A stretch of 36,366 nt of DNA, from assembly GCA_964589485.1 (NCBI GenBank), contig CAZPRK010000010.1, positions 1 to 36,366 on the forward strand, in the 5' to 3' direction. The position numbers were made by a program, and so were the translations under genes. Within the stretch, counting starts at the first letter, position 1; every line of letters begins with the position of its first letter. This DNA is from an uncultured Methanosarcinales archaeon. Lineage in GTDB: Archaea; Nanobdellota; Nanobdellia; Woesearchaeales; CAYSVS01. The notes beneath the pieces were generated by a model. It made no database searches. It saw only the letters and a program-made list of their open reading frames with translations, and was not told the DNA's origin. This document shows, piece by piece, positions 10,508-36,131 of the stretch.

Positions 10508-11350
10508 ATGGAATCAGATAAAGCACTTGTTGTATTTGAAGATAAGAAAATAAGAAGAATTTGGCATAATGGTGAATGGTGGTTTTGTATAAATGATATA
10601 GTTACCATACTTATTGATACTGTTAATGCTTCTGATTATATTAAAAAGCTTAAAATTCGAGATGATGAGTTGAACAAAGGGTGGGGACAAATTGTCACCC
10701 CCCTTTCAATTGAAACATCTGGAGGTGTACAAAAGTTGAATTGTACTTCAACAAAAGGAGCTTTTAGGGTTATTCAATCTATTCCTTCTAAGAAAGCTGA
10801 GCCTTTTAAACAATGGTTAGCTGAAGTTGGTTATGAAAGAATTCAAGAAATAGAAAACCCTGAGCTTGCACAGGATAGAGCTAAAGCATATTATGAACAA
10901 AAAGGATATCCTAAAAGTTGGATTGATAAAAGACTTCGTGGAATTGCTGTTCGTCAAGACTTAACAGATGAATGGAAAAATAGAGGCGTAGAACATAAAA
11001 ATCAATTTTCGATACTTACAAACGAAATTTCTAAGGCAACATTTGGTTTAGATATAAAAGAACATAAAAAAGTCAAAGGTCTTGATCCTAAATTTAAAAA
11101 TAGAAATTTAAGAGATCATATGACTGACTTAGAACTTATTTTTAATATGCTTGGAGAAGCATCAACAACTGAAATTGCAAAGGAGAACGATTTTCAAGGC
11201 TTCAAAGAAAATAAAATTGCTGCAAAAGAAGGTGGGAAAATATCTGGAAATGCTAGAAAAAGCTTAGAGCAAAAAACAAAGAAACAAGTTGTAAGTTCAA
11301 ATAATTATCTCTATCTAAATAATAAAAAGATCAAACAACATAATCAATAG
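10508..11350 (+). CDS. Bro-N domain protein (phage antirepressor/DinD-like family)
   Basis: IRRIWHNGEWWF, RVIQSIPSKKAEPFKQWLA, NLRDHMTDLELIF. Confidence 0.85.
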   Translation: MESDKALVVFEDKKIRRIWHNGEWWFCINDIVTILIDTVNASDYIKKLKIRDDELNKGWGQIVTPLSIETSGGVQKLNCTSTKGAFRVIQSIPSKKAEPFKQWLAEVGYERIQEIENPELAQDRAKAYYEQKGYPKSWIDKRLRGIAVRQDLTDEWKNRGVEHKNQFSILTNEISKATFGLDIKEHKKVKGLDPKFKNRNLRDHMTDLELIFNMLGEASTTEIAKENDFQGFKENKIAAKEGGKISGNARKSLEQKTKKQVVSSNNYLYLNNKKIKQHNQ

Positions 11351-13537: not shown

Positions 13538-16500
13538 ATGATGAAAAAGGTATTGTTCACAGTATTTCTTTTCTTATCTATAATCTTTATTGTTAATGCA
13601 GATTTTGAAATTCAAGCTAATTTATTATGTACTACATGTGACACATGTAATTCTCAAATTGTAGCTGCAGATCCTGGCGATTATGTATTGCTTACTGCAA
13701 ATGTTGAAACTACGGTTAAGACTTGTATTAATATATCTAGAGGTGATATTCTTTTTTCTTGTTATGGTGGAACTGAAATAAAAGGAAATGGAAGTTATGC
13801 AATCTTGATAAATAGGTCTGTTCATAATGTTTCGAGATTAACCATTGACAGTTGTAGAATAAATGGTTGGGAAAAAGGTATATTTGCAAGGAATGTAGTT
13901 AATATTACTATGTCTAATTTATCTATAAGCAACACTTCAATTGAAGGAATACATTTGGTTTCTACTAAGAATATTACTATTGTTAGAAGTAACTTTACCC
14001 ATAACATTAATAATATAAGAGGAATCAATGTTACTAATGTACTTTTAGGTAATAATACTTTTTTGCATTCACAAGGTTTAATTATTAATAGAGGAAAAAC
14101 TCCGACAATCACTTATAGCGTTTTTAAAAATATTTCAACTTTAGCTTTGCGAATAGATAATTCAACAAATGTAACTATTAATTGGAATAATTTTACAAAT
14201 GTAAATAATAGTATAAATATAAAGAATAGTAGTAATGTTTCTGTTACAGATAATGTATTTAATAAATCAAAAAGTTTAATTTTCAACTTAACTAATAACT
14301 TTAATTTTAGTAGAAATACATTTCTTGGAAACTCTACTTCAGAGTTGCTTCATTTTGAACGAACTCATTACGGTGGAATAATAAAAAATACGTTCTACAA
14401 CCCATTAGGTAATAGGTTAGTTCACTTATTACACTCTAAAACTGAAGCTTTTAGTAATAATACTTTAATAAATGGAACTAATGCTGTGTATTTAGAAAAT
14501 ATGACTACTTTAAATTTTACTTATAATAATTTGACAAATTTTATTGGAGTGGGAGTTTCTATTCAACAATCTCCAGTTGGAAGATTTTCTTATAATCGTT
14601 TTTATAATGTAACAATTGGTTTGAAAATGCTTGATACTGACTCCGATACTAAAACTATCTTCAAAAATATTTTTAATATATCTACTACTGCAATAATTTT
14701 GAATAATTCTATTAATTTAGAAGTTCTAAATAATACTATTGATAATGCAACATATGGAATAAAAATGTTTAATGCAGAAACGCACATTATAGAAAATAAT
14801 ACAATAATAAATGTTCAAAATCCTTATTATAAAGAATTTAATTTGAGTAGTGTTAATTCCGATACAAATACAAATGTGACTAGTTTATTAAAGTTATATA
14901 GTGAATTTGGTATTATTAATTTTTTAAATACAGTTGATTATTCTAGTTTATTTGATTTTAGTAGTATTCTAGGAAGTAATAATATTTCTGCAAATACAAG
15001 TGCAAATCCAGGATTAAATTCATCAGCAGAAATTAATTTGTATGATGTTGATTATGTTAACGTTGGATTAGAATTTGAACAAGATGGAGAGTGGAATTAT
15101 TGTGATAATTCTAGATGTAATGTATTAAATTATTCAGATAATAATTTGTTATTTAATGTAACTCAATTTTCAGGTCTTAGAGCAAGAGGCGATAATATAG
15201 GTTTATCATCAGATGCAGATGCAGGAGATAGACGTGAAGATGAAGAAATTTTCTTTGAAAATAATTTCACTAATGTATCAAGAAGTACATATACTTCTGG
15301 TGTAACTTGTACTATTCAATTTAATTTAAGCGATGGATGGACAAATGCAACTAACATGAGTCTTGATGGAGCGTTTAAGTCAAGTTATGCTTTTACTGAT
15401 CCTGGAACTTACGTTTGGCTAGTTGTTTGTAACAATTCTGGTTCATTAATTAATTTTTCTAGTTCAATAAGTGTATTGGCTAGAGTTACTGTTGGAATAA
15501 CAACATCAAGTGGAGCTAGTAGAGTTTTTAGTTTTATTCCTACAGACGCTTCAGATATAGAAGCGTCAATAGAGGAAGGTAAAAATATCTTCATAAATTC
15601 TCCTGATTATGTTTCTTTAACGAATGAACATAGTCAACGAATAGCAGAGTCAATGAAAGATACTATTCCAGAAGATTGGGTTAATGTTGAAGTAAAAAAA
15701 ATAGATGATTCATCTGAAACTACAATTGCCACTATAGCCACTTTAGATGCAAGCGAAAAGTTTATTGTTGATAAAAAAGCAAAAGATACAATGGGTAGTT
15801 TAAGAGAAAATACTAGAAGAGCACAAATTGCAACAATACCCACAACAAATCATTTAACAACTTATACAGTTATTAATAAAGACACAGGTGAAACTGTAAA
15901 TAGATCTGCAATAAGTGTTGCTTTTTCAGCTGAATATAATATGTCAAACACTTCTATTATACAAATTATTCCTAAAAATATAGCTCTCTCAGCTTCTGAA
16001 TTAAAATTTATTGGAAAGCAACCAACAATATTACAAGATGATCCTATTGTTGAATGGACAGTAGATAACATGAGAAAAGGAGATTCTAAAGAATTTACTT
16101 ACATTGTAAAAAGAAAAGTAACTAAATTAGAAACTATTGTAATTGGAAGTGGAAAGTACGAAGATAGAGTAACTGGAGAAAACTTACCTTGTTCTAATAT
16201 TTCTAAAGGTAATTTGTCTAGACCAGTTACATCACTTAAAGCTGAAGTAAAAGATGAAGAAATTACTCCTGGGTATGAAGTTGCTATTCCTGCATTTAAT
16301 TTAAAATGTGATGGTGAAGATATTGACTTTACAGTAAGCGTTCCTTTAGAATATACTGATGTTAAAATTTTAAAATGTACAGATGAAGGTTGCCTTCCTA
16401 AAGAAAAGAAAACTGTAACTGAATTAAAATGTGGAAATAAAATTATTAGAGAAACTGTAATAGAAGAAGAGTTTGGTGGATTTGTTCCGATAAACATTTC

Positions 16501-17920
16501 TAATGTTACTATAAATTATGATGAATTCAAGCAAGCTTTTGAAAGTATGAAATTAATGGATTTTTATGATAATAAAGATGAATTTATTTTAGAAACTTCA
16601 GCAATACAACCACAAAATCCTAATTTGAAAATATTAGGTGCGCCTATTAAGATAAGGTTAGAAAATTTAGAAGAAACTTCAATTACTTTGCCTGTCATTA
16701 CTGCAATGGGTTTTGAAGATAACTCTCAAAATATTTATGTTAAAACTAATGACTTAGAATGGCAATATATTGGTGGAGAAATAAAAGATAACTTTATTAC
16801 CGCTACAATTCCAAAAGAATATTTTATTAATAATGAAATTGAAGTTGCAGTAATGGGTATTTTATGTTTAAATTGTATTGAAGCTGAGATGGAAATGGCT
16901 TATTCTCCTGATAAATCAAGTAAAGATGTTGTTGTTTTAGTTCATGGTTTAGCATCTTCTCCTGCAACTTATGAAGATATTTTAAAAGATATTAGGTTAA
17001 CTGAACAACCTTTTAATGTATTAACTTTTGCTTATCCAACTTCACATCCTATAAAGAAAAGTGCAGAAAAATTTGCAAGTTTATTGGAAGAACATGTTAA
17101 AAACTTTGATAATGTTTACATAGTTGCACATTCAATGGGAGGATTAGTTACTCAACAGGGTTTAAATTTAACTAGAGACAAAAAATATGTTCAAAAGATT
17201 AAGAAAGTTGTTTTAGTAGGAACGCCAAATGAAGGTGTCCCTGAAGTTGATTCTTTAGGTTTAATGTTTCAATTTTTAGTTAATTTAAAGACAGAAAATA
17301 AAATGTTTAATCTTAGAAGTGGAGTAGTTGAAGAACTTGCAAAAGGAATGATTACTCCAAGGTTAGATCATATTGATTATTATGTAATTGCTGGAGAAAA
17401 ACCTTTTAGATTTTCAAAAGCTTTGAATATAAATGAAACCAATGATGGTATAGTAACAGTTCCAAGTGCTCAACGTGTTGGTGATGGATATCTTACCAAT
17501 CAGTGTAAAGATTTCTGGGGTTTAAAGTTATCCCATAATGAATTAATTGATAATGTTGTTTCAAGAAAATTAATTGAAAGGATTGTAGCTGAAGAAATTT
17601 TAAAAGGAAATGATGATAACAGTTTATTAGGAAATACTCAATTTTTTGAGTTTAATGTTAACGATTGTTCTCCTGATGACAAATACGTTGTTATAGGTGT
17701 TAAATTAAATCAAAGTGAAATTTATGATCCAACTGGATGTAGTTGCGGTAATGGTGTTTGTGGTCAAGGAGAAGATGAAACAAGTTGTCCTTCAGATTGT
17801 GCTGTATTCGAGATAAGAACAAAATCAAATTTAAGTATATTGGGGCTAATATTAGTTTTTATTTCTTTAATTTACTTTCTTAGTCATAGAAAGAAATTAA
17901 AAAGAAAACGATCTAAATAA
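13538..17920 (+). CDS. Large membrane-anchored surface protein: parallel beta-helix repeats, alpha/beta-hydrolase domain, Cys-rich module, C-terminal TM
   Basis: Signal peptide; Asn-rich 'I.NN.F' repeats; VLVHGL, AHSMGG, GTPNEG, NDGIV; CGNGVC..GED..SCP.DC; hydrophobic tail followed by RKKLKRKRSK. Confidence 0.85.
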   Translation: MMKKVLFTVFLFLSIIFIVNADFEIQANLLCTTCDTCNSQIVAADPGDYVLLTANVETTVKTCINISRGDILFSCYGGTEIKGNGSYAILINRSVHNVSRLTIDSCRINGWEKGIFARNVVNITMSNLSISNTSIEGIHLVSTKNITIVRSNFTHNINNIRGINVTNVLLGNNTFLHSQGLIINRGKTPTITYSVFKNISTLALRIDNSTNVTINWNNFTNVNNSINIKNSSNVSVTDNVFNKSKSLIFNLTNNFNFSRNTFLGNSTSELLHFERTHYGGIIKNTFYNPLGNRLVHLLHSKTEAFSNNTLINGTNAVYLENMTTLNFTYNNLTNFIGVGVSIQQSPVGRFSYNRFYNVTIGLKMLDTDSDTKTIFKNIFNISTTAIILNNSINLEVLNNTIDNATYGIKMFNAETHIIENNTIINVQNPYYKEFNLSSVNSDTNTNVTSLLKLYSEFGIINFLNTVDYSSLFDFSSILGSNNISANTSANPGLNSSAEINLYDVDYVNVGLEFEQDGEWNYCDNSRCNVLNYSDNNLLFNVTQFSGLRARGDNIGLSSDADAGDRREDEEIFFENNFTNVSRSTYTSGVTCTIQFNLSDGWTNATNMSLDGAFKSSYAFTDPGTYVWLVVCNNSGSLINFSSSISVLARVTVGITTSSGASRVFSFIPTDASDIEASIEEGKNIFINSPDYVSLTNEHSQRIAESMKDTIPEDWVNVEVKKIDDSSETTIATIATLDASEKFIVDKKAKDTMGSLRENTRRAQIATIPTTNHLTTYTVINKDTGETVNRSAISVAFSAEYNMSNTSIIQIIPKNIALSASELKFIGKQPTILQDDPIVEWTVDNMRKGDSKEFTYIVKRKVTKLETIVIGSGKYEDRVTGENLPCSNISKGNLSRPVTSLKAEVKDEEITPGYEVAIPAFNLKCDGEDIDFTVSVPLEYTDVKILKCTDEGCLPKEKKTVTELKCGNKIIRETVIEEEFGGFVPINISNVTINYDEFKQAFESMKLMDFYDNKDEFILETSAIQPQNPNLKILGAPIKIRLENLEETSITLPVITAMGFEDNSQNIYVKTNDLEWQYIGGEIKDNFITATIPKEYFINNEIEVAVMGILCLNCIEAEMEMAYSPDKSSKDVVVLVHGLASSPATYEDILKDIRLTEQPFNVLTFAYPTSHPIKKSAEKFASLLEEHVKNFDNVYIVAHSMGGLVTQQGLNLTRDKKYVQKIKKVVLVGTPNEGVPEVDSLGLMFQFLVNLKTENKMFNLRSGVVEELAKGMITPRLDHIDYYVIAGEKPFRFSKALNINETNDGIVTVPSAQRVGDGYLTNQCKDFWGLKLSHNELIDNVVSRKLIERIVAEEILKGNDDNSLLGNTQFFEFNVNDCSPDDKYVVIGVKLNQSEIYDPTGCSCGNGVCGQGEDETSCPSDCAVFEIRTKSNLSILGLILVFISLIYFLSHRKKLKRKRSK

Positions 17921-22436: not shown

Positions 22437-22682
22437 TTAATATCTCCACTCACTATGACCCCATGCAATCATTAGGTCAGTTTTAATGTTTCTAGGAAAA
22501 TCACATCCGCCAAAACAACTTCCAAGCCAAATATACACCTCACAATTAGTTTCTTTTTCTAATTGCATCTTAATTTCTCTTGCTTCGGGTTTCAATCCGT
22601 CAGGTAATTGAATTAAAACCTTTTTAGCTTCATTTTTCTTAATTTCTTCAATTGCCTTTTTTAATTCAAGATCATATCTCAT
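22437..22682 (-). CDS. Stand-alone N-terminal domain of diphthamide synthesis protein Dph2
   Basis: KVLIQLPDGLK, GSCFGGCD (first Fe-S Cys), WGHS; only 81 aa. Confidence 0.85.
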   Translation of the reverse strand: MRYDLELKKAIEEIKKNEAKKVLIQLPDGLKPEAREIKMQLEKETNCEVYIWLGSCFGGCDFPRNIKTDLMIAWGHSEWRY

Positions 22683-24447: not shown

Positions 24448-24852
24448 ATGGAATTAGAATCAAATGAAGGTGATGAACCTCCCTCGGGATGGTTAGAGGG
24501 AGTAATTCTGGATGAAGATATTTTTATAGAAAATAATGATAGTTCTTTAATTTTAATGTATCATACTGGAGATTTAGTGGAAGGTAATGGTTTTTACACA
24601 AATGAATTCCCAGAAGTTGGTAAGTTAGATTATGTTGAAAGTGGTGATGAACCTACGTACCAAAGTACAGAATTAGGTGATTCTAATTATACTGGAGAAA
24701 AAATAGATGAAAATATGCATTTGTATAATATTGGCATAGCGAATAATCCTTTACTTAAAGCTCAATCAAAACAGGCATTAATGAGGGAAGTAATGTTAGG
24801 TAATGCTGCAGCTTCAGTAGCATTAAGACAAATTAAAGTTTTAGATCCTTAG
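24448..24852 (+). CDS. Acidic hypothetical protein
   Basis: 134-aa ORF with GGGGTG RBS. Confidence 0.65.
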   Translation: MELESNEGDEPPSGWLEGVILDEDIFIENNDSSLILMYHTGDLVEGNGFYTNEFPEVGKLDYVESGDEPTYQSTELGDSNYTGEKIDENMHLYNIGIANNPLLKAQSKQALMREVMLGNAAASVALRQIKVLDP

Positions 24853-24925: not shown

Positions 24926-25237
24926 TTGAGGGAAATAATACAAAGCCTAAAGGTGTGTGAAAAAGAATCCACTAAGATTTTAGAAAAGGCTGAAACTGAT
25001 TCTTTGGCTATGGTTGAGAATGCTAAAGAAAAAGCAAAACAAAGCATAGGCAAACTTTATACTAAAATCGAAAATAATAGACAGAAAAATTTGAAAAAAG
25101 CAGAAGCAGAAATCGATGAAGAAATTAAGACATTAAAATCAGACTCTGATAAACAACTAAAATCTCTTGAAACAAGTTTTTCTAAAAATAAAGTGAAAGC
25201 AAAAAAAGAAATTATTAAGGTGTTATTAGGAGATTAA
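24926..25237 (+). CDS. atpH: A/V-type ATP synthase peripheral stalk subunit H (G)
   Basis: Charged helical ~100-aa protein first in operon; AGGTGA RBS, TTG start. Confidence 0.8.
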   Translation: MREIIQSLKVCEKESTKILEKAETDSLAMVENAKEKAKQSIGKLYTKIENNRQKNLKKAEAEIDEEIKTLKSDSDKQLKSLETSFSKNKVKAKKEIIKVLLGD

Positions 25238-25240
25238 TTT

Positions 25241-27160
25241 ATGTTTAGGTCTTCAGATATGCAGAAAGCTAGTCTTTTTGCTGTTTCAAATGAAAGAGAA
25301 AAAGTTTTAAGTAAAATACATGAAACTGGGTTGCTTCAATTAATTGATTTAAAGGGAAGTGATATAGATTTAGAATTATCGAACCCAGGAAGTGAATTAA
25401 AAGAAATTTCTGATAAATTACTTAGAGTTTCTAGATTAGTTACAATTATGAAACTTGCACCTAGAAAGCTTTCTTTTACACAAGAGTTATTTGGTTTAGA
25501 GTTAATGGATAAAGAACATGTAAAAAGAGAAAGTAAAAAAGTAATGATAAAACATGCTGAACAATTTTTAGACAAAAATGAAGAAAAATTATTAACATTA
25601 GAAGAAGAAAATTTAACTTTAAATGAAAAAATTAATGTATTAAATGATCAAAAGAAATTAATTGTATTGTTGACAAACTTAGGAATTCCTTTAGATGAAA
25701 TTCAAACTTCCAATAAAATTTTATTCACATTAGGAAGAATTAATAATATTAATTTAGATAACTTCAAAAAAGATTGTGAAGATGACTTAAATGAATTATG
25801 TCATTTTGATGTTAGAGAAGAAAATAATAAAGAATCAGTTATAACTTTAATTACAGTTAAAGAAGATGAACATAAAGTAAATTTGTTAACTAAAAAACAT
25901 TCACTTTTAACGTTTGCTCTACCAGACTTAGAAAAACCAACAGTTGAATTTGTTGATAATGCGATTGAAACTTCAATCCAAAGAAGAATTAAGTTAATTG
26001 AAGAAATTTCAGAATTTAGAAAGAAAGTATTTGCAAATGCTATTAAATATAGAGAAGAATTAGAACTATTAAAAGAAAAATATGAAGCTATTCATAAAAC
26101 TATGAATTCTGAAAAATTCTTTTTATTAACAGGATGGGTTAGTAAAGAAAATATTAAAAAATTAGAAGATAGTTTGAAAAATTTAGCTGTAATTACTTTT
26201 GAAGACCCTAAGGAAGAAGATATTGTTCCAGTAGAAACAACTAATCCAAGGTGGCTAAAACCATTCGAAGTATTAACTGAATTATATTCTTTGCCAAAGT
26301 ATAAAGATTTAGATCCTACTTTTATTGTTGGTCCAATTTTTGTAATTTTTGCAGGGTTTATGTTAACTGACTTTGTATATGGTTTAGGGTTAGTAGTATT
26401 AGGAAGTTTTCTAATCAAAAAATTTGGCAAGTATAGCCAAGGATTAAATGATATTTCAATTAGCATTTTATTAATTGGAATTTTTTCAATGTTTTTTGGT
26501 GTTTTAACTGGAAGTTATTTAGGAGATATGATGCAATATATTAATCCTAGTTGGACTTCTAAAAATTTAGCATTCTGGGGAGATCCTTTATCAGATCCAT
26601 TATATTTTTTAATTATTAGTTTAGGAGTAGCATTAGTTCATGTAAATGTAGGTTTAATTATGGGTTTAACCGAAGACATAAGAAAAAAAGAATATAAAAC
26701 TGCTCTAGGTGATAGAATAGTTTGGTTTATTATACAAATTGGAATTGCATTATGGGCAACTGGATTTTTAGCTACTTTTGGTAAGATATTATTTGGGTTA
26801 GGTGTATTAATAAAAGTAAGCACAGCTGGTCCACTTGGATTATTAGACATTACAGGTTTTATGGGAGATGTAATAAGTTATTCTAGATTATTTGCATTAG
26901 CTTTGAGTACAGCTGGAATTGCAATGACTGTAAATTTATTAGCAGATTTACTTAGCGGAGTACCTTTTATTGGCTTTTTTTTAGCTGCTTTGATTTTCAT
27001 TGTAGGTCATTTATTTAGTTTCGCAATGAATGCATTAGGTGGTTTTGTTCATAGTATTAGGTTACAGTTTGTAGAATTTTTTGGAAAATTTTATGAAGGT
27101 GGCGGAGATAGATTTTTACCATTTAAAGAAGAAAGAACTTATACTGAGGTTAAAAAATGA
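25241..27160 (+). CDS. atpI: A/V-type ATP synthase subunit I (a)
   Basis: LPKYKDLDPT, GFMLTD, DVISYSRLFAL (essential Arg), HSIRLQFVEFF. Confidence 0.96.
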   Translation: MFRSSDMQKASLFAVSNEREKVLSKIHETGLLQLIDLKGSDIDLELSNPGSELKEISDKLLRVSRLVTIMKLAPRKLSFTQELFGLELMDKEHVKRESKKVMIKHAEQFLDKNEEKLLTLEEENLTLNEKINVLNDQKKLIVLLTNLGIPLDEIQTSNKILFTLGRINNINLDNFKKDCEDDLNELCHFDVREENNKESVITLITVKEDEHKVNLLTKKHSLLTFALPDLEKPTVEFVDNAIETSIQRRIKLIEEISEFRKKVFANAIKYREELELLKEKYEAIHKTMNSEKFFLLTGWVSKENIKKLEDSLKNLAVITFEDPKEEDIVPVETTNPRWLKPFEVLTELYSLPKYKDLDPTFIVGPIFVIFAGFMLTDFVYGLGLVVLGSFLIKKFGKYSQGLNDISISILLIGIFSMFFGVLTGSYLGDMMQYINPSWTSKNLAFWGDPLSDPLYFLIISLGVALVHVNVGLIMGLTEDIRKKEYKTALGDRIVWFIIQIGIALWATGFLATFGKILFGLGVLIKVSTAGPLGLLDITGFMGDVISYSRLFALALSTAGIAMTVNLLADLLSGVPFIGFFLAALIFIVGHLFSFAMNALGGFVHSIRLQFVEFFGKFYEGGGDRFLPFKEERTYTEVKK

Positions 27161-30100
27161 GCATTCCATATTATAGTTATTTACAAACCCAGGGAATTTT
27201 ACAGGAAGCTGTAAATAATATGACAAAGACAGTTGTTGAAACATCTGTTGATTTAAGTAATGTTACAATTAATAATTCAATTACAACTTCTGGAATGTTT
27301 GGTGGTATGTTTAATATTGGGATTGATCCTATGTATTTAGCTATAATAGGAGCAGGTATCGCAGTAGGTGTTTCTGGAATTGCATCAGCTATTGGAGCCG
27401 GAATTGCAGGAAGTACTGGAGCGAAAGCTGTAGCTGAAGATCCTAAACAATTTTCAACTGCATTATTATTTCAAGCTTTACCTCAAACTCAAGGTATTTA
27501 TGGTTTTTTAATTGCAATTTTAATATTATTGGGAGCAGGTGTAGTTGGAACTGTAAAACAAATCACATTAGCTCAAGGTTTAGGTGCTTTAGGTGCTGGT
27601 TTAGCAGTTGGAATTGCAGCAGTTTCAGCAATTGGTCAAGGTATTGCAGCAAGTGCAGGAATTGGAGCAGTAAAAGAAGATAAAAAAATGTTTGGTAAAA
27701 GTATTTTATTCTCAGTTTTGCCAGAAACTCAGGCATTATATGGTTTTATTATTTCTATTTTAATATTAATAGGTGTAGGGTTATTCGGAGCTGTAACAAA
27801 AAATATTCCTGAAGTATTAGGATGGGCTTCAGTTGGTGCAGGTTTAGCAGCAGGTATTGCTGGAATTTCAGCTTTAGGTCAAGGAATTGCGGCAGCCGGT
27901 GGAATTGGAGCTGTATTAGAGAGAAGTAAAGTTTTTGGTAAGAGTATTTTATTCTCAGTTTTGCCAGAAACTCAAGCATTATATGGATTTATAATTGCAG
28001 TATTGATATTAATAGGGTTTGGAATTTTAGGTGTTCCACAATCTGAATTTAATTTAGCTTTAGGAATGTTTGCAATAGCTGCAGGGTTAAGTGTAGGTAT
28101 TTCAGGAATTTCTGCAGTAGGTCAAGGTATGGCAGCTTCAGCCGGTATTGGAAGTATTGCAGAAGATGATAAAATGTTTGGTAAAAGTATTTTATTTTCA
28201 GTCTTGCCAGAAACTCAAGCATTATATGGATTTTTAATTGGAGTTTTAATTTTAGTTGGTGGTGGGTTAATTGGTGGAATAAAAGTTGGCATTACAACTC
28301 CTATAGGTGTTATTGCAATAGGCGCAGCTTTAAGTGCAGGTTTTGCAGCAGTTTCAGCTATAGGTCAAGGTATGTCTGCTTCTTCAGGAATAAAGTCAGT
28401 TACAGAAAAACCAAGTATGTTTGGTAAAAGTATTATATTTAGTATCATTCCTGAAACTCAAGCTTTAATGGGATTTTTAATTGCTATATTATTATTAATA
28501 GGTTCAGGTATTATTGGTTCAGCTAAAGCGGGACTTAGCATGGGCAGTGGTTTAATTGCAATAGGTGCAGGAGTTGCTGTTGGTTTAGCTGCTGTGTCTG
28601 CAGTAGGTCAAGGATATGTTGTAAGTTCAAGTATTACTAACGTTACAAGAAATGCGAAAATGTTTGGTAAAAGTTTATTATTCAGTGTACTTCCTCAAAC
28701 TCAAGCATTATATGGATTTTTAATTGCAATTTTATTATTAGTTGGAGGTGGTCTTGTAGGCGGAGTTAAGTCAGGACTTTCTACTTCAATAGGTTTAGTT
28801 GCAATTGGAGCTGGATTAGCAGTTGGTCTTTCTGCAATGTCAGCAATTGGTCAAGGACTAGTTGCAAGTAGTGCAGTAAATGCAGTTTCAAGAAATAATA
28901 AAATGTTTGGTAAAAGTATTTTATTTTCAGTCTTGCCAGAAACTCAAGCACTATATGGATTTTTAGTAGCTATAATTCTGTTAGTATCAGGTGGATTAAT
29001 TGGTGCTTCATCAACTAGTATTATTACTCCAATGGGAATTGTTGCAATTGGCGCTGCAATTAGTGTTGGGTTTGGAGCAATTTCAGCTATAGGTCAAGGA
29101 ACTTCTGCAGCTAGCGGAGTTACTGCAACTTCTGAAAAACAAAGTATGTTTGGTAAAAGTATTATATTTAGTATTATTCCTGAAACTCAAGCTTTAATGG
29201 GTTTTTTAATTGCAATTTTAATGTTGATTGGTGCAGGGTTAATGGGAAAAATTGCATATTCTATTTCGATAGCTCATGGGGTTGTAGCAGTGGGTGCAGG
29301 TTTTGCTGTCGGTATGGCTGCTATTTCAGCTATAGGTCAAGGGTTTGCAGTTTCAACATCTATTAATGCAGTAACCCAAGATGCAAAAATGTTTGCAAAA
29401 AGTTTATTGTTTTCAGTTATTCCACAAACTCAAGCTTTAATGGGTTTTTTAATCGCAATATTAATATTAATTGGCAGTGGATTAGTAGGAAGTATTAACA
29501 TGGCTATAACTACTGCAAATGGTCTTGTAGCAATAGGTGCAGGATTTGCTGTAGGATTAGGAGCATTATCTGCAGTAGGTCAAGGTTTTGTTATTTCATC
29601 TGCTATAACTACAGTAACACAAGATAACAAAATGTTTGGTAAAGGTTTATTGTTTAGTGTTCTTCCACAAACTCAAGCATTGTATGGATTTTTAGTTGCA
29701 ATTTTACTTCTTGTAGGAGGAGGATTAATAGGCGGAAGTGCTTTAGATTTACATATTCCTGTTGGATTACTTGCAATGGGTGCAGGGTTAGCTGTTGGTT
29801 TAGCAGCAGCTTCAGCTATTGGTCAAGGATTAGTTGCAGGAAGTGGTATAACTGCAGTTAAGGAAGATAATAAAATGTTTGGTAAAGCTATATTGTTTTC
29901 AGTCTTGCCAGAAACTCAAGCATTGTATGGATTTTTAATCGCAATTTTATTATTAGTAGGCGGTGGATTAATAGGTACATTAAATTTAGCATTAACTGTT
30001 CCTTTAGGTTTAGTTGCAATTGGAGCAGGGTTAAGTGTCGGAGTTGCTGCAGTTTCAGCTATAGGTCAAGGTGTAGCTGCAAGTAGCGGTGTTGCTTCAG

Positions 30101-30462
30101 TTCAAGAAAATAGTAAAATGTTTGGTAAAAGTATTTTATTTTCAGTATTACCAGAAACTCAAGCGTTATATGGAACAATAATATCTATTCTTTTAATGAC
30201 TGGTGTTGGTATAATGGGTGTTATTAAATCTGGAGTAACTATGTTACAAGGATTTGGTGCAATAGGCGCAGGATTAGCTATAGGTTTTGCTGCAATATCA
30301 GCATTAGGTCAAGGAATAATTTCAGCAAGTAGTATAGGTGCAAGTTTAAAAGATGCAAAAAGTATGGGTAAAGGATTAGTATTAAGTGTAATCCCTGAAA
30401 CATATGCTATCTTTGGATTATTAATTTCAATTTTAATGTTGTTAGGACTTAAAATAATTTAA
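27157..30462 (+). CDS. atpK: A/V-type ATP synthase proteolipid subunit K (c) with 13 fused hairpins
   Basis: 13 copies of G-A-G-L...SAxGQG...F.K..LF..LP(E/Q)TQA.YGF, between atpI and atpE. Confidence 0.96.
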   Translation: MSIPYYSYLQTQGILQEAVNNMTKTVVETSVDLSNVTINNSITTSGMFGGMFNIGIDPMYLAIIGAGIAVGVSGIASAIGAGIAGSTGAKAVAEDPKQFSTALLFQALPQTQGIYGFLIAILILLGAGVVGTVKQITLAQGLGALGAGLAVGIAAVSAIGQGIAASAGIGAVKEDKKMFGKSILFSVLPETQALYGFIISILILIGVGLFGAVTKNIPEVLGWASVGAGLAAGIAGISALGQGIAAAGGIGAVLERSKVFGKSILFSVLPETQALYGFIIAVLILIGFGILGVPQSEFNLALGMFAIAAGLSVGISGISAVGQGMAASAGIGSIAEDDKMFGKSILFSVLPETQALYGFLIGVLILVGGGLIGGIKVGITTPIGVIAIGAALSAGFAAVSAIGQGMSASSGIKSVTEKPSMFGKSIIFSIIPETQALMGFLIAILLLIGSGIIGSAKAGLSMGSGLIAIGAGVAVGLAAVSAVGQGYVVSSSITNVTRNAKMFGKSLLFSVLPQTQALYGFLIAILLLVGGGLVGGVKSGLSTSIGLVAIGAGLAVGLSAMSAIGQGLVASSAVNAVSRNNKMFGKSILFSVLPETQALYGFLVAIILLVSGGLIGASSTSIITPMGIVAIGAAISVGFGAISAIGQGTSAASGVTATSEKQSMFGKSIIFSIIPETQALMGFLIAILMLIGAGLMGKIAYSISIAHGVVAVGAGFAVGMAAISAIGQGFAVSTSINAVTQDAKMFAKSLLFSVIPQTQALMGFLIAILILIGSGLVGSINMAITTANGLVAIGAGFAVGLGALSAVGQGFVISSAITTVTQDNKMFGKGLLFSVLPQTQALYGFLVAILLLVGGGLIGGSALDLHIPVGLLAMGAGLAVGLAAASAIGQGLVAGSGITAVKEDNKMFGKAILFSVLPETQALYGFLIAILLLVGGGLIGTLNLALTVPLGLVAIGAGLSVGVAAVSAIGQGVAASSGVASVQENSKMFGKSILFSVLPETQALYGTIISILLMTGVGIMGVIKSGVTMLQGFGAIGAGLAIGFAAISALGQGIISASSIGASLKDAKSMGKGLVLSVIPETYAIFGLLISILMLLGLKII
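27331..30453 (+). repeat. 13 diverged tandem coding repeats, period 243 nt (81 aa)
   Basis: P(E/Q)T codons start at 27481, 27721, 27964, 28207, 28450, 28693, 28936, 29179, 29422, 29665, 29908, 30151, 30394 (first spacing 240, all others 243). Confidence 0.95.
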
Positions 30463-30474
30463 GGTGTATAAAAA

Positions 30475-31023
30475 ATGAGCTTAGAAAAAATTAAACAAAA
30501 AATTTTAGATGAAGCAAAAGAAGCTTCAGAAAAAACCAAGTCAGTATATCAAGAAAAAGTTGACGAAATTGTTAGTGACAATAAGAAAGAAATGGAAACA
30601 ATTTCTCAAAAAAAAGACGATGAAATTAATGCAGAAATTGTATTATTTAAAAAAAATGCAATAGCAAGACAAAAGTTATCTTTACAATCAAAGTATTTGG
30701 TAAGAAGGGAAGAGATATTTAATTCTCTTTTAACGGATGCATTGAAAAGTGTTGATGCTAATTTGGTTAAGGAATATATGAAAACTGTTCTTGATGAAAA
30801 TAAAGATTTATCTGGAAAAGTAACAGTAACTTGTTCAAAAGAATATATTGAGTTTGTTAATTCAAATACAAAATTTTCAAATTTTGAAGTAATTGAATCA
30901 AAAGATGATTCTTTTACTATCGCATCTGATTCAGGATTAAGAATCAATGGATCTTTAAATGCGTTAGTTGAAAGAAAAAAAAGTGAATTAAGACAAGGAG
31001 CCATCAAGGCTTTAGGTGTATAA
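30475..31023 (+). CDS. atpE: A/V-type ATP synthase subunit E
   Basis: MSLEKIKQKILDEA helical N-terminus; operon position. Confidence 0.88.
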   Translation: MSLEKIKQKILDEAKEASEKTKSVYQEKVDEIVSDNKKEMETISQKKDDEINAEIVLFKKNAIARQKLSLQSKYLVRREEIFNSLLTDALKSVDANLVKEYMKTVLDENKDLSGKVTVTCSKEYIEFVNSNTKFSNFEVIESKDDSFTIASDSGLRINGSLNALVERKKSELRQGAIKALGV

Positions 31024-31025
31024 AT

Positions 31026-32066
31026 ATGGATGTAGTAGTATTTGGAGCAATTGCAGCTAGTTTAGTTGCAGGAACTGTAGTTATTTGGCCTACTGTGCAA
31101 ATGACAATTGGTTTAGCTCCGCACATTTATGCTAATACTAGATGTAGTGCAAAACTTGCACAATTACTCCCAGATACATTTACAGATAATTTACTTCAAT
31201 CAGTTTCATATGAAGAATCATTATCTTTACTTGAAGATTCTTATTATAGAGTTTATGTAGAAAAGTCAAGAGATTTTGTTAAACTTAGTTCAATGTTAAA
31301 TCAAGATTTATATTTAACGTATCGATGGTTAGAAACAATTGTTCCTGAAAATATGGTTCCAATAATAAAAACACTTAGAATTAAGTTTGAAATTGGTGAT
31401 ATTAAAGAATTGTTTAATAATTTAAAAAATAAAATAACAGAACATAAACTTCCTCATGTTCAAGATGAAAATTTAAAATTAAAGTTAGAAAATACAACTG
31501 ATTTTGCATCATTAATGGCGTCATTTGAAGGAACTGAGTATAGTACTATTTTTGCTAATAAAAATCTTACACAACTCGATAGCATAAATAATGAATTAGA
31601 TAAATTTTATTTTGAAAAAGTTTTTGATGTCATTTCAGCTTCTGAAGATGAAAAAGCAGCAGTGGCATTTAAAGAATATTTTAGTTATTTAGTAGATTTA
31701 ATAAATTTAAAATTAACTCTTCGAAGAATTGATAAAAAATCTTCATTAGATTTATTAGATCATGGAAGAATTTCAAAAGAATCATTAGAAGATATTGAAG
31801 ATTTAAATGCTTTTGAGAATTTATTATCTCAATTTGGTTATAATGAAAATATTGTTGAATATACTCCTTTTGAGATTGAAAATAGCGTATACAAATATAT
31901 GAAGAAAGCTTCAGGGTTAATTAACTCAAAACATAGCTTAAAGTCAGGAAGTGTTGTAAGATATATTATGCTTAAAGAAATTGAAATTAGGAATGTAAAT
32001 ATTATTTTAAAATTAAAGTCAGATAACTTCAATAAAGAAGAAATTCAAAAGGTGTTAGTATTATGA
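31026..32066 (+). CDS. atpC: A/V-type ATP synthase subunit C (d)
   Basis: YANTR, DLINLK..LR, KEIEIRNV; N-terminal hydrophobic segment. Confidence 0.9.
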   Translation: MDVVVFGAIAASLVAGTVVIWPTVQMTIGLAPHIYANTRCSAKLAQLLPDTFTDNLLQSVSYEESLSLLEDSYYRVYVEKSRDFVKLSSMLNQDLYLTYRWLETIVPENMVPIIKTLRIKFEIGDIKELFNNLKNKITEHKLPHVQDENLKLKLENTTDFASLMASFEGTEYSTIFANKNLTQLDSINNELDKFYFEKVFDVISASEDEKAAVAFKEYFSYLVDLINLKLTLRRIDKKSSLDLLDHGRISKESLEDIEDLNAFENLLSQFGYNENIVEYTPFEIENSVYKYMKKASGLINSKHSLKSGSVVRYIMLKEIEIRNVNIILKLKSDNFNKEEIQKVLVL

Positions 32067-32368
32067 TGCAGATTGCTTTAATAGGAGATGAAGATACTAT
32101 TAACGGGTTTATGTTAGCTGGGGTAAAACATAGTATAAAATATAGAGAAGATAAGCTTGAAGAAGATTTGAAAAAATTTTCAGAAGCAAAAGTTTTAGTA
32201 TTTACAGAAAAAGTTGGAGAACAATTAAGAAAAACTGGATTAATTGATAAAATTGAAAATACATATTTAGAAATTCCAGATAAAACTGGTTCAAGTGGCC
32301 AGGCAATGCAAAAAATAAGTAATTTATTTGAGAGTGCAATTGGAATTGCACTAAAAGAAAACGAATAA
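32063..32368 (+). CDS. atpF: A/V-type ATP synthase subunit F
   Basis: IALIGDEDTINGFMLAGV, EIPDKTG. Confidence 0.93.
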   Translation: MMQIALIGDEDTINGFMLAGVKHSIKYREDKLEEDLKKFSEAKVLVFTEKVGEQLRKTGLIDKIENTYLEIPDKTGSSGQAMQKISNLFESAIGIALKENE

Positions 32369-32379
32369 GGTGATTCACG

Positions 32380-34116
32380 ATGGAAGGAAAAATTATCAAA
32401 ATATCAGGACCTGTTGTTGTAGCTTCAGGCATGAAAGGAGTTCAGATGTATGAAGTTGTTAAAGTAGGAGATGAAGGATTAGTTGGTGAAGTAATTGAAC
32501 TTCATGAAGATACAGCGACAATTCAAGTATATGAAGAAACTACAGGGATTGCACCTGGCTCAAAAGTTGTATCTACTGGTGCAAGTTTAAGTGTTGAATT
32601 AGGTCCAGGAATTATAGGTAATATTTATGATGGGATATTAAGACCATTAGATAAAATTAAAGAACAAACTGGAGCATTTCTTGCGAGAGGTGTTGAAGCA
32701 GATTCAATTAACCATAAGAAAAAATGGAAATTTGTTCCAAAATTAAAAAAAGGAGAAGATGTTACTCCTGGAATGATTATTGGAGAAGTAAAAGAAACTT
32801 CAGTAGTTGTACAAAAAATTTTAGTTCCACCTGGTGTAGAGGGTGAACTTAAAAAAATATCAAAGGAAGGAGAATATACTGTAGAAGATGTTGTAGCTGT
32901 TGTAGGCGATACTGATATTAAATTAAGTCAAAAATGGCCGGTTAGAATTCCTCGTCCAGTAATTGATAAATTAGAACCTACTTTACCTTTAGTTACAGGA
33001 ATGAGAATTATTGATACTTTTAATCCAGTTGCAAAAGGAGGAACAGCTTGTACTCCAGGACCGTTTGGAAGTGGAAAAACTGTTACACAACAAAGTATTG
33101 CAAAATGGTGTGATGCAGATATTATTGTTTACATTGGTTGTGGTGAAAGAGGAAACGAAATGACTGATGTATTGCAACAGTTTCCGACTATTAAAGATCC
33201 ACGAACAGGAAAAGCATTACTTGAAAGAACAATTATTATTGCAAATACCTCAAATATGCCAGTTGCAGCTAGAGAAGCTTCAGTTTATACTGGAATTACA
33301 ATTGCTGAATATTTTCGAGACATGGGATTTGATGTAGCTTTAATGGCTGATTCAACATCAAGATGGGCAGAAGCAATGAGAGAAATTTCAGGAAGATTAG
33401 AAGAAATGCCTGGTGAAGAAGGTTATCCTGCTTATTTATCAACAAGGTTAGCTCAATTTTACGAAAGAGCTGGACGTGTAAAAACATTAAATAAAGATGA
33501 AGGAAGTGTTACTGTAATTGGAGCAATTAGTCCACCTGGTGGAGATTTTTCAGAACCAGTTACACAGAATACATTAAGAGTTAATAAAACGTTTTGGGCT
33601 TTAGATAAAAATTTAGCTTCAAGGAAACACTTTCCCGCAATTAATTGGTTAAATAGTTATTCTTTATATTTAGATTCAGTTACTGATTGGTATAAAGATA
33701 ATGCAGGAGATAAATGGCGTGATCTTAGAGATGAAGCAATGAGATTATTACAAAAAGAAGAACAGTTACAGGAAATTGTTCAGTTAGTTGGTCCAGATGC
33801 TTTACCTGATAACGAAAGATTAGTTTTAGAAGTTACTAAAATTATCAGAGAAGATTTTTTACAACAAAATGCTTATCATGAAGTGGATTCATATTGTCCT
33901 TTATCAAAACAAGTATTTATGCTTGAATTAATCTTGGAATGGTTTTCACTTTCAAATGCAAAATTAACTCAAGGTGTAAGTATACACGATATTTCAGATA
34001 TGAAAATAAAGGAAGAGTTAGCGAGAATGAAAGAATTTAATAATGATAAATTCGAAGATCATTATAAAACATTAACAAAACAAATGGCCGAAGAATTTGA
34101 GGCTATGAAGGCGTAG
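32380..34116 (+). CDS. atpA: A/V-type ATP synthase catalytic subunit A
   Basis: [37 protein letters not shown]; no intein. Confidence 0.98.
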
Positions 34117-34129
34117 GAGGCACATTACA

Positions 34130-35512
34130 ATGAAACAAAAAACAATGGAGTATAGTTCAATTAAAGAAATATCAGGTCCTTTAATGATTGTTAAGGGAGT
34201 TGAGGGTGTTGCTTACGGTGAATTAGTAGAAATTCAATCTGAAGATGGTCAAAAAAGAAATGGACAAGTCCTTGAAGCTAAAGATGATTTAGCAGTTGTT
34301 CAAGTTTTTGAAGGAACAAGAGGTTTAGATACTAAACATACATCAGTAAGGTTTACAGGAGAGACAATGAAGATAGGAGTTTCCGAAGAAATGATTGGAA
34401 GAATTTTTAATGGACTTGGAAAACCAATAGATAATAATCCTGAAATAGTTCCAGAAGCTAATTTAGATATTAATGGGCAGGCTATTAATCCTGCAGCTAG
34501 AGAATTCCCTGAAGAGTTTATTCAAACAGGTGTAAGCGCGATAGACGCTATGAGTACTTTAGTAAGAGGACAAAAACTTCCAATTTTTTCAGAAGCTGGT
34601 TTGCCACATAATCAATTAGCAGCACAAATTGCAAGACAAGCAAAAGTTTTAGGAAAAGGTGAAAAGTTCGTTGTTGTTTTTGCAGCAATGGGAATTACTT
34701 TTGAGGAAAGTAAATTTTTTATGAATGACTTTGAAAGGACTGGTGCAATTGAAAATATGGTTGCGTTTATCAATTTAGCAGACGACCCGGCAATTGAAAG
34801 AATTATCACACCTAGAATTGCATTAACAACAGCTGAATATTTAGCTTTTGAGAAAGATATGCATGTATTGGTTATTTTAACTGACTTTACAAATTATTGT
34901 GAAGCTTTAAGAGAAATTGCAGCTGCAAGAAATGAAATCCCTGGGCGAAGAGGATACCCAGGATACATGTATACTGATTTAGCGATGAGTTATGAAAGAG
35001 CTGGTAAGTTAGAAGGTAAAAAGGGAAGTGTTACTCAAATCCCAATTTTAACAATGCCACAAGGTGACATAAGTCACCCTATTCCTGACTTAACTGGTTA
35101 TATTACTGAAGGACAAGTTGTTGTTAGTAATGAATTACATAGAAATGGTGTTTATCCACCGATTGATGTTTTACCATCTTTATCAAGACTTATGAATGAA
35201 GGTATTGGTGAAGGTAAAACTAGGGAAGATCATAGTGGTGTAGCTAACCAGTTATATAGTGCATATGCTGAAGGAAGAGATTTAAGAGATTTAGTTGCCG
35301 TTGTAGGTGAAGAAGCTCTAAGTGAAAGGGATAAAAAAATCTTAAAGTTTGCATCATTATTTGAAAATGAATTTATTCGACAAGCAAATAGTGAAAATAG
35401 AGATGTAACTAAAACTCTTGGAATTGGTTGGAAATTATTAGGAACCTTACCAGAAAAAGAGTTAAAGAAAATTAAACTTGAGCACATTTCAAAATATTAT
35501 CCAAAGAAGTAA
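34130..35512 (+). CDS. atpB: A/V-type ATP synthase subunit B
   Basis: [37 protein letters not shown]. Confidence 0.98.
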
Positions 35513-35513
35513 A

Positions 35514-36131
35514 ATGGCATCAAAAACTATAATTGCAACACGTATGGAGCTGTTAAAGCTTAAGAAAAAGATTAAGCTAGCTCAGAAAGGACATAAACTT
35601 TTAAAAGAAAAAAGAGATGCTTTAATTGGTGAATTTTTTACTTTAATGGAAGGGTTAAAAACTCAAAGAAAAGATGTAGATTACGCTTTAGAAAAAGCAT
35701 TTAAATCTTTAAGTTTATCTACAGCTATTTCTGGATCTGATGAAATTAAGCGTGCAGCTTATTCTACTGATGAAATGGGTGAAATTGTCCAAAAGAAAAA
35801 TACAATTATGGGAGTTAGTGTTCCTATTTTTGAATTTGAATCTAAAATTGATAGAAAGTATAGTCATTTGTCAACTAATGTTGAGTTAGATACAGCTTCA
35901 AGATATTTTGATAAAGCTCTTAATAAAATGGTAAAATTAGCTGAACTTGAAGCAACTGCTACAAAGTTAGCTGATGAAATTAAAAAAACTAAACGTAAAG
36001 TAAATGCATTAGAACAAAGGTTAATTCCTAACTTGAATAAAGATATTATTTACATTAAAATGCGTTTAGAAGAAATGGAAAGAGAAAATTTCTCTAGATT
36101 AAAAGTTATTAAGAAGAGAATTGAAGCGTAG
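35514..36131 (+). CDS. atpD: A/V-type ATP synthase subunit D
   Basis: TRMEL, GHKLLKEKRDAL, IKKTKRKVNALE, ERENFSRLK; start at ATG 35514 just after the atpB stop. Confidence 0.96.
   Translation: MASKTIIATRMELLKLKKKIKLAQKGHKLLKEKRDALIGEFFTLMEGLKTQRKDVDYALEKAFKSLSLSTAISGSDEIKRAAYSTDEMGEIVQKKNTIMGVSVPIFEFESKIDRKYSHLSTNVELDTASRYFDKALNKMVKLAELEATATKLADEIKKTKRKVNALEQRLIPNLNKDIIYIKMRLEEMERENFSRLKVIKKRIEA

Follow-up and report, generated by a model that had tools for sequence, protein, structure and literature searches.

The window analysed here, the whole 36,366-nucleotide contig CAZPRK010000010.1, carries the operon of an archaeal/vacuolar-type ATPase (A/V-ATPase) whose subunit K, the proteolipid or c subunit, is encoded as one protein of 13 fused hairpins. 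We think it likely that this protein is the proteolipid rotor of a complete ATPase of a DPANN archaeon, that it was amplified from a V-type c subunit separately from the corresponding protein of Methanopyrus, that a single chain forms the ring, and that nine of its Na+ sites are live. Read in this way, K represents a second line of 13-hairpin rotors made of a single chain, one that evolved separately and has silent sites programmed into it.

The open reading frame (ORF) of K runs uninterrupted through 1101 codons and specifies 1101 residues. Pfam model ATP-synt_C (PF00137) matches it in 13 separate stretches (E 3e-198), and the NCBIfam models for V-type subunit K recognise it as well, the top one, NF011483, with 1096 bits (cut-off 188). 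There are 13 instances of the motif P[EQ]T[QY], eleven of the intervals between them being 81 residues and one 80, which confirms the 13 fused proteolipid hairpins with a period of about 81 residues that the first-pass annotation had described. At the DNA level there are 13 copies with a period of 243 nt (one of 240) and a mutual likeness of 60-76%, and the longest exact repeat inside the gene measures 53 nt; the units are old and diverged, not recent copies. The start codon shares the bases ATGA with the stop of subunit I, 8 nt downstream of a GAGGT, and the gene occupies the place between subunits I and E that belongs to the K family. All members of the operon, in the order H-I-K-E-C-F-A-B-D, are recognised by Pfam or NCBIfam (E and H weakly; Table 1), so that the claim of a complete A/V-ATPase operon stands. 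The same applies to the absence of another K gene: a search of all six frames of the window with a hidden Markov model (HMM) of the hairpin yielded no further c gene and matched the K ORF alone.

Nor is the protein a one-off, since at least 15 related clusters carry 12 or 13 hairpins. A length-matched search returned 86 K relatives of 605-1927 residues, in which hairpins were counted with an HMM made from the window's own units: 35 proteins have six hairpins, seven have eight, three have nine, two have ten, two have 11, 14 have 12, 18 have 13 and five have 15. The clusters P0002-P0016 (n=15), which are 63-87% identical to K by BLAST and, where named, belong to Nanoarchaeota, Nanobdellota or an 'archaeon', comprise ten with 13 complete hairpins, one (P0016) with 13 of which the last is partial, and four with 12. 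Counted with the window, this K family numbers at least 16 clusters, 12 with 13 hairpins and four with 12.

Ion sites along the chain

Along hairpins 1-13, the position of the ion-binding carboxylate reads QEEEEQEEQQEEE, that of the helix-1 Gln AQQQQQQQQQQQQ and that of Tyr(+5) YYYYMYYMMYYYF. The Glu is kept in nine of the 13 hairpins and replaced by Gln in hairpins 1, 6, 9 and 10, a feature absent from the first-pass annotation; the rotor thus has nine intact sites and not 13. Silent hairpins are normal among V-type members of the K/c family, to which a chain with Glu in nine of 13 hairpins conforms. Tyr is lost in hairpins 5, 8, 9 and 13, each of which is followed by one where Gln takes the place of Glu (6, 9, 10 and 1, respectively).

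This offset by one hairpin has a structural counterpart in NtpK of Enterococcus hirae (2bl2), to whose residues 12-154 hairpins 1 and 2 align (E 5e-20). The T, Q, Y, GQG-Gln and Glu of the window fall on NtpK Thr64, Gln65, Tyr68, Gln110 and Glu139, of which Thr64, Gln65, Gln110 and Glu139 are Na+ ligands and Tyr68 is the stabilising Tyr (PMC2359735, in its description of the site). In NtpK, one hairpin contributes its second helix to the site and the following hairpin both of its helices, and the window is organised in the same way. Each ion site would lie between neighbours, with Thr, Gln and Tyr supplied by hairpin n and the helix-1 Gln and Glu by hairpin n+1. Judged by motif, the full Na+ ligand set (helix-1 Gln, Glu, Thr(+1), Gln(+2) and Tyr(+5)) is present at nine of the 13 inter-hairpin sites, which would make them of Na+ type. 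The silent sites would be 13/1, 5/6, 8/9 and 9/10, each turned off by a two-hairpin module in which Tyr gives way to Met or Phe in hairpin n while Glu gives way to Gln, together with bulkier helix-1 residues, in hairpin n+1.

The pairing extends to the relatives. Proteins with at least six hairpins were merged into 25 distinct patterns, gapped ones being dropped, and the rule that Tyr is lost in hairpin n where, and only where, site n+1 is impaired was obeyed at every inner junction, 25 of 25 impaired and 224 of 224 intact ones, although these cells are not phylogenetically independent. At the junction from last to first hairpin it held in 23 of the 25 patterns, and in the control registers 0, +2 and -1 the same 25 patterns displayed no association between loss of Tyr and an impaired site. 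For the composition of the module, 13 clade members were compared (the twins P0002 and P0013 were excluded, as was P0016, which is partial); the inner hairpins of these 13 include 15 dead and 126 live ones. Leu replaces Ile at column 50 in all 15 dead inner hairpins, versus 4% of live ones, Val-Val replaces Ala-Ala after GQGx in most of the 15, and the hairpins that precede them read SIIPETQALMGF in 15 of 15 cases. Switching off a site is the work of a conserved module, not of decay, and the number of live sites across members of the DPANN clade is 12, 11, 10 or 9.

Nine Na+ per turn and three ATP would give a ratio of 3.0 ions per ATP, not 4.33. With the relation delta-Gp = n F delta-mu (given in PMC9171764), our own arithmetic for a phosphorylation potential of 50-60 kJ/mol arrives at about 173-207 mV for n = 3 and about 120-144 mV for n = 4.33. 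The lower ratio would mean either a higher voltage built per ATP or a larger voltage needed for ATP synthesis. The working direction of the enzyme is not readable from its sequence; the organism probably lives without respiration, and an ATP-driven Na+ pump would fit at least as well as a synthase.

Origin, ring closure and unit number

Some of the observations that follow count against one or another part of our reading, and each is given next to the evidence that it qualifies. Two of them concern the rotor as a whole: the scan for c genes covers the window, and a second one may lie elsewhere in the genome; and the Na+ specificity, the ratio of 3.0 and the direction of pumping are all read from motifs.

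The origin of K was approached through trees of single hairpins, two made with FastTree (114 and 106 rows) and one with IQ-TREE in quick mode (71 rows), each on about 79 columns; because hairpins hold so few columns, many forks of these trees are open. First hairpins of 'Gln-first' proteins with 2, 3, 4, 6, 12 and 13 hairpins, the window included, form one clade in all three trees (support 99, 96 and 99), the last hairpins of these proteins form another (99, one tree), and the 11 inner hairpins of the DPANN 13-mers make up an exclusive clade in all three (97, 95 and 96), with the Methanopyrus hairpins placed elsewhere. The patterns line up from shorter to longer proteins, from QE (Tyr pattern YF) through QEE (YYF), QEEE (YYYF) and QEEEEE to Q followed by 11 or 12 E; the QEE and QEEE patterns occur in unnamed proteins of three and four hairpins among those compared. 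The gene would have started from a V-type c subunit of four helices, its first hairpin dead and its last live, between which 11 further hairpins would then have been amplified within the DPANN lineage, separately from Methanopyrus. Within the gene, the dead hairpins 6, 9 and 10 group together (97), as do the Met-bearing hairpins 5 and 8 (99), and the dead module appears to have spread by recombination within the DPANN K gene.

Comparison of whole chains points the same way. Hairpin identity between the window and five 13-hairpin relatives from the DPANN clade is 65-74% at shift 0, versus 55-60% at other shifts, whereas comparison with four Methanopyrus-type proteins gives much the same value, about 47-50%, at each of the 13 cyclic shifts; no one-to-one register was found with the Methanopyrus protein P0017, as 323 of 2000 permutations reach the observed diagonal. 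The first-pass annotation had proposed an origin independent of Methanopyrus kandleri. The per-hairpin phylogeny upholds this in that the hairpins do not cluster one-to-one with those of Methanopyrus, and so do the flat registers, the DPANN-only inner clade and an approximately unbiased (AU) test that rejects joining the DPANN first hairpins with the Methanopyrus first hairpin (p 0.012). For the last hairpins, joining them with the Methanopyrus last hairpin was not rejected (AU p 0.33), and the groups for both tests were named after the tree was seen. That both lines reached the same number, 13, holds for the window but is soft, given the 12-hairpin relatives and a 12-hairpin record of the same protein described below.

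We consider it very unlikely that both proteins go back to a common 13-hairpin ancestor, inherited or transferred, whose positional signal was later wiped out by gene conversion. Such an ancestor would explain the equal number of hairpins and the last hairpins that the AU test leaves joined; gene conversion between units (5/8 and 6/9/10) is evident in the DPANN gene and could erase an old register, and subunit A shares 63% identity with its Methanopyrus counterpart, near the 65% for Methanobacterium. However, the two terminal hairpins of the DPANN proteins, 1 and 13, fall with the termini of 'Gln-first' proteins of 2 to 12 hairpins and not with Methanopyrus, joined first hairpins are rejected, identity to Methanopyrus is level in all 13 registers, and Methanopyrus-type proteins keep all 13 sites. 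In addition, a locus in another Woesearchaeota genome (L003:5157-5393, in a metagenome-assembled genome (MAG) named Ca. Woesearchaeota) has the same operon order with a single-hairpin K of 78 residues, which reads PETLVIFG like that of Thermus thermophilus, so that both extremes of hairpin number occur among archaea named Woesearchaeota. An origin separate from Methanopyrus is favoured by these comparisons of sequence.

Other multi-hairpin proteins were met among the relatives. Those in P0042-P0076 (n=35, about 605-805 residues; Thermoplasmata or Thermoplasmatota where named) have six hairpins of pattern QEEEEE and an N-terminal extension, which in many of them contains PKD domains (PF00801, PF18911); going by c-subunit topology, an extracellular domain would then hang on the rotating ring. 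P0030, P0032 and P0033 have 12 hairpins of pattern QEEEEEQEEEEE, with the helix-1 Gln and Tyr patterns doubled too, and seem to derive from the six-hairpin type by tandem doubling. Inner hairpins of other lineages also group by lineage, which, together with the QEEEEEQEEEEE doubling, suggests several separate origins of long single chains with 12-13 hairpins.

With regard to the ring, AlphaFold2 (31-row alignment) models K as helical throughout, with a mean predicted local distance difference test (pLDDT) score of 85.0 and a predicted template modelling (pTM) score of 0.85 over 1101 residues; pLDDT drops below 50 in residues 1-54 alone and lies at 62-79 in the linkers. Foldseek matches the model locally to 2bl2_A (NtpK) with a template modelling (TM) score of 0.86 and a root-mean-square deviation of 1.6 Å over 150 columns. 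The whole K model had 0 matches in the PDB at E <= 0.001, two-hairpin chains being all that was matched, a search that is silent on ring closure. Solved A/V-type rings have 12 single hairpins in T. thermophilus (132 chains, 11 entries) and ten double hairpins, that is 20, in E. hirae (50 chains, 5 entries); 13 hairpins fall inside this range and 26 outside it. Hairpin numbers in the 86 long relatives go no higher than 12-13, except in a distant family that reaches 15, and no K relatives of 1928-5000 residues were found in the search, which is weak evidence. From the model and these counts, the single chain most likely closes into a 13-hairpin ring, and if it does, ring size would be written in the gene.

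Alternatively, the ring may hold two or more K chains and hence at least 26 hairpins, in which case the gene alone does not set its size. A pTM score by itself does not distinguish a closed ring from a rigid arc, the rule linking hairpin 13 to hairpin 1 would be expected in a two-chain ring too, since chains touching head to tail satisfy it no less than a single closed chain does, and the six-hairpin relatives must oligomerise. Against a two-chain ring, 26 hairpins exceed the solved range of 12-20, the 86 long relatives peak at 12 (14 proteins) and 13 (18) with none above 15, the doubled six-hairpin pattern QEEEEEQEEEEE of P0030, P0032 and P0033 suggests that 12 is a complete unit, and a single chain already attains its pTM of 0.85 in the AlphaFold2 model; we hold such a ring to be quite unlikely. 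That the ORF encodes a polyprotein cut into small c subunits after translation has nothing in the sequence to speak for it and is barely credible, as the linkers, short at about 11 residues, are variable and contain no conserved cleavage motif in the consensus of 31 sequences, and as position-specific dead sites and a neighbour rule that includes the step from 13 to 1 presuppose a ring in which the hairpins stay in order.

The number of units itself is called into question by P0002, a public protein of 1020 residues that equals the window's K minus exactly 81 residues between hairpins 8 and 9, with an identical prefix of 688 and suffix of 344 residues. Its contig measures 36123 nt, i.e., 36366 minus 243, and its junction lies within a 12-residue stretch common to hairpins 8 and 9 that matches a 28-nt exact repeat. 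P0002 represents either population variation between 12 and 13 units or one wrong assembly, and its 12-unit form either a collapse or a real deletion variant. The pairs P0009/P0013 (minus 81 residues) and P0013/P0022 (minus 324 residues) are otherwise identical, the shorter forms being on shorter contigs, and reflect either collapse of repeats in assembly or real variation in unit number by one and four units. Such whole-unit pairs mean that hairpin counts from metagenome assemblies are not fully reliable.

It could be argued on these grounds that the count of 13 is an assembly error and that the true gene has 12 or some other number of units: the same protein is on record with 12 units on a contig shorter by 243 nt, two other pairs differ by whole units, and an exact repeat of 28 nt flanks the variable unit. 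However, P0002 lacks a unit whose sequence is unique, hairpin 9 being only 47-66% identical to the other hairpins, which is why the 13-unit form is not an assembler's duplication. The units are 60-76% alike, with no exact internal repeat beyond 53 nt, ten diverged relatives have 13 complete hairpins, the five 13-mers that were tested are in register with the window, and cluster P0001 has five member sequences where cluster P0002 has one. We judge an error in the count to be highly improbable, and retain 13 hairpins in one chain.

A bolder proposal, which we think unlikely, goes beyond the single-chain rotor. One gene would hard-code ring size as well as the number and angular position of live sites; a dead module spread by copy-and-paste would lower the Na+/ATP ratio in steps, 4.0 with one dead site, then 3.67 and 3.33, down to exactly 3.0 in the window; and the 12/13 twins would be a real polymorphism in ring size. 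The spacing in P0003, P0004 and P0005, the closest 13-hairpin relatives, hints at a match to the three catalytic steps, as their dead sites 1, 6 and 10 leave gaps of 5, 4 and 4, which rank among the three most even three-fold spacings in a 13-ring (by our own count, 3 of the 66 placements of two extra dead sites). Three-fold spacing of dead sites as a general rule was dropped: the gaps are 6, 3 and 3 in P0028 (12 hairpins) and 5, 3, 1 and 4 in the window.

Host, neighbouring genes and further relatives

The best named relatives of subunit A are from Ca. Woesearchaeota (75%), Nanoarchaeota (73%) and Nanobdellota (69%), and those of K from Nanobdellota (66%), Nanoarchaeota (64-65%) and one 'archaeon' (63%). 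Nanobdellota and Ca. Woesearchaeota belong to the kingdom Nanobdellati, which we take to be equivalent to DPANN. The assignment to DPANN made in the first-pass annotation agrees with these relatives of both subunits, and a host of the Woesearchaeota/Nanoarchaeota kind fits them.

Table 1. Features of the A/V-ATPase operon and of its K gene, with window coordinates
Feature	Position	Strand	Basis
Subunit H, G/H-type stator stalk; heads the operon	24926..25237	+	Pfam V-ATPase_G E 7e-6 (below cut-off); NCBIfam subunit H E 2e-5, weak
Subunit I (a-type stator, ion channel)	25241..27160	+	PF01496 E 9e-25; NF004428 over full length E 1.6e-145; stop overlaps start of K
Subunit K (c/proteolipid), 1101 residues, 13 hairpins, 26 transmembrane helices	27157..30462	+	Pfam; NCBIfam; motif count; AlphaFold2 pLDDT 85, pTM 0.85
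K, N-terminal extension (residues 1-52), polar, not conserved in relatives	27157..27312	+	pLDDT <50 in residues 1-54; start of alignment without consensus
K, hairpin 1: dead site, Gln for Glu, Ala for helix-1 Gln; counterpart of first hairpin of V-type four-helix c	27313..27555	+	Site pattern; alignment to NtpK helices 1-2; first-hairpin clade
K, hairpin 5: live Glu; Tyr(+5) is Met, predicted to disable next site	28282..28524	+	Site pattern; clade with hairpin 8 (99)
K, hairpin 6: dead site, Gln for Glu	28525..28767	+	Site pattern; clade with hairpins 9 and 10 (97)
K, hairpin 8: live Glu; Met in place of Tyr(+5)	29011..29253	+	Site pattern
K, zone of the 243 nt (81 residues) absent from P0002	29185..29463	+	Flanked by 28-nt exact direct repeat at 29183 and 29426
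K, hairpin 9: dead site, Gln for Glu; Met in place of Tyr(+5)	29254..29496	+	Site pattern
K, hairpin 10: dead site, Gln for Glu	29497..29739	+	Site pattern
K, hairpin 13: live Glu; ETY..F replaces ETQ..Y; counterpart of last hairpin of V-type four-helix c	30226..30459	+	Site pattern; NtpK comparison; last-hairpin clade (99)
Subunit E (stator stalk), weak assignment	30475..31023	+	NF002629 E 4e-9, far below cut-off; no Pfam match; operon position fits
Subunit C (d-type, on ring)	31026..32066	+	PF01992 E 8e-36
Subunit F	32063..32368	+	PF01990 E 7e-13
Catalytic subunit A	32380..34116	+	TIGR01043 968 bits (cut-off 972); NF003220 920 bits
Subunit B	34130..35512	+	NF003235 797 bits
Subunit D (central stalk)	35478..36131	+	PF01813 E 2e-56

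Ahead of hairpin 1 lies the N-terminal extension listed in Table 1; among K relatives the first hairpin sets in at residue 4-97. An ORF of 134 residues without a Pfam or NCBIfam match (24448-24852, + strand) stands directly upstream of subunit H on the same strand. Farther upstream, the window encodes a 1460-residue protein of right-handed beta-helix/NosD repeats with a C-terminal part resembling alpha/beta-hydrolases (13538-17920, +), which may be a surface protein, and a 280-residue protein with a BRO-N domain (10508-11350, +), a domain usual in viruses and mobile elements. An 81-residue ORF on the opposite strand (22437-22682, -) covers the first 56 of the 302 positions of the diphthamide synthase profile, below its cut-off, and may be a gene remnant or a chance match.

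A patterned scan of genomes for related loci gave three loci, none with a full-length multi-hairpin K, its patterns being too specific. Two of the three (L001:3-908 and L002:6623-7887) carry a long K that is split over two contig ends of a MAG named Thermococci archaeon, the pieces being 49-53% identical to the window's K. The most distant of the long relatives, P0077-P0081 (1108-1147 residues, 27-29% identical; two named Promethearchaeota, i.e., Asgard), have 15 hairpins with Glu in all 15, the Na+ ligands Gln and Thr being replaced by Ile/Leu and Ala. From these residues they look like a further, distant single-chain ring, probably of H+ type, and our literature searches found no paper on a 15-hairpin K of this kind.

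Significance and comparison with known systems

The number of ions per ATP in rotary ATPases is set by the c ring, whose size in nearly all organisms has to be measured because the genome does not write it. A one-chain ring would fix the number of ions and open single, addressable positions to evolution and to experimenters. If K does form its ring alone, it would provide a test case from nature for the passage of silent positions, two of them adjacent, past the stator, along with graded relatives of 12, 11, 10 and 9 live sites in the same scaffold, and it would speak for repeated origins of 12-13-hairpin single-chain rings among archaea. The protein further shows that some DPANN archaea, often described with reduced or missing ATPases, keep a complete and elaborately tuned enzyme; one survey reports several ATP synthase subunits missing in 60 of 103 DPANN (PMC10656485).

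Archaeal c subunits have been listed with 1, 2, 3 or 13 hairpins (Litty and Muller, 2022, PMC9171764, in its passages on c subunits). The 13-hairpin case is K of M. kandleri, a protein of 1021 residues that has been proposed to form the ring alone (PMC2359735 and bioRxiv 10.64898/2026.10.01.756066; as cited, Lolkema and Boekema, 2003, FEBS Lett 543:47). That preprint still treats M. kandleri as the extreme and mentions 'several multi-hairpin structures' without detail. Full-text literature searches found no description of a multi-hairpin K in DPANN, although the supplements of the preprint may list such proteins. The preprint also groups T. thermophilus with the four-helix c subunits; the K chains of this species in the PDB have 73-102 residues and match a single hairpin of the query.

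Methanopyrus K shares with the window a single ORF with 13 hairpins, an A-type operon and the Na+ ligand motif, and P0017 (Methanopyrus sp., 1021 residues) is 45% identical to the window's K over 91% of the query. The two differ in three respects: the six Methanopyrus-type proteins are all-Glu, all-Gln and all-Tyr, whereas the window reads QEEEEQEEQQEEE with nine sites kept; no hairpin-to-hairpin register links them; and the terminal hairpins of Methanopyrus stand outside the V-type series of 'dead first, F/L last' to which those of the window belong.

E. hirae NtpK resembles the window in its Na+ ligands, all of which are in place where hairpins 1 and 2 align, and in its fold, on which the AlphaFold2 model superposes. 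Its first hairpin has no carboxylate, as in hairpin 1 of the window (Gln for Glu, Ala for helix-1 Gln), and its second ends in ETYAILGF, comparable to ETYAIFGL in hairpin 13, so that the chain begins and ends as an NtpK-type protein does, with a first hairpin lacking both carboxylate and helix-1 Gln and a last one with Glu and ETY..L/F. Unlike the window, with 13 hairpins per chain and nine sites, NtpK combines two hairpins in each of ten chains into a 20-hairpin ring with ten sites. K of Methanocaldococcus jannaschii is reported to have three hairpins and two carboxylates (Ruppert and colleagues, 1999). Its layout is the 'Gln-first' QEE that also appears in the series given above; with three hairpins it must oligomerise, whereas the window has 13 and extra dead sites inside the chain.

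The K ring of the T. thermophilus V/A-ATPase (6qum) is of A/V type with 12 hairpins, from 12 single-hairpin chains per entry, so that a ring of 12-13 hairpins fits an A/V-type enzyme; it differs from the window in that its subunits are separate, lack the full Na+ motif (PETLVIFG) and carry a carboxylate in every hairpin. A silent position among live Na+ sites, finally, has a parallel in the hybrid F-type c ring of Acetobacterium woodii (4bem), which is made of nine one-hairpin c subunits and one V-type c subunit with one site (PMC9171764, in its account of that ring). The A. woodii ring is F-type, is assembled from separate gene products and has one silent position, versus four in the one chain of the window.

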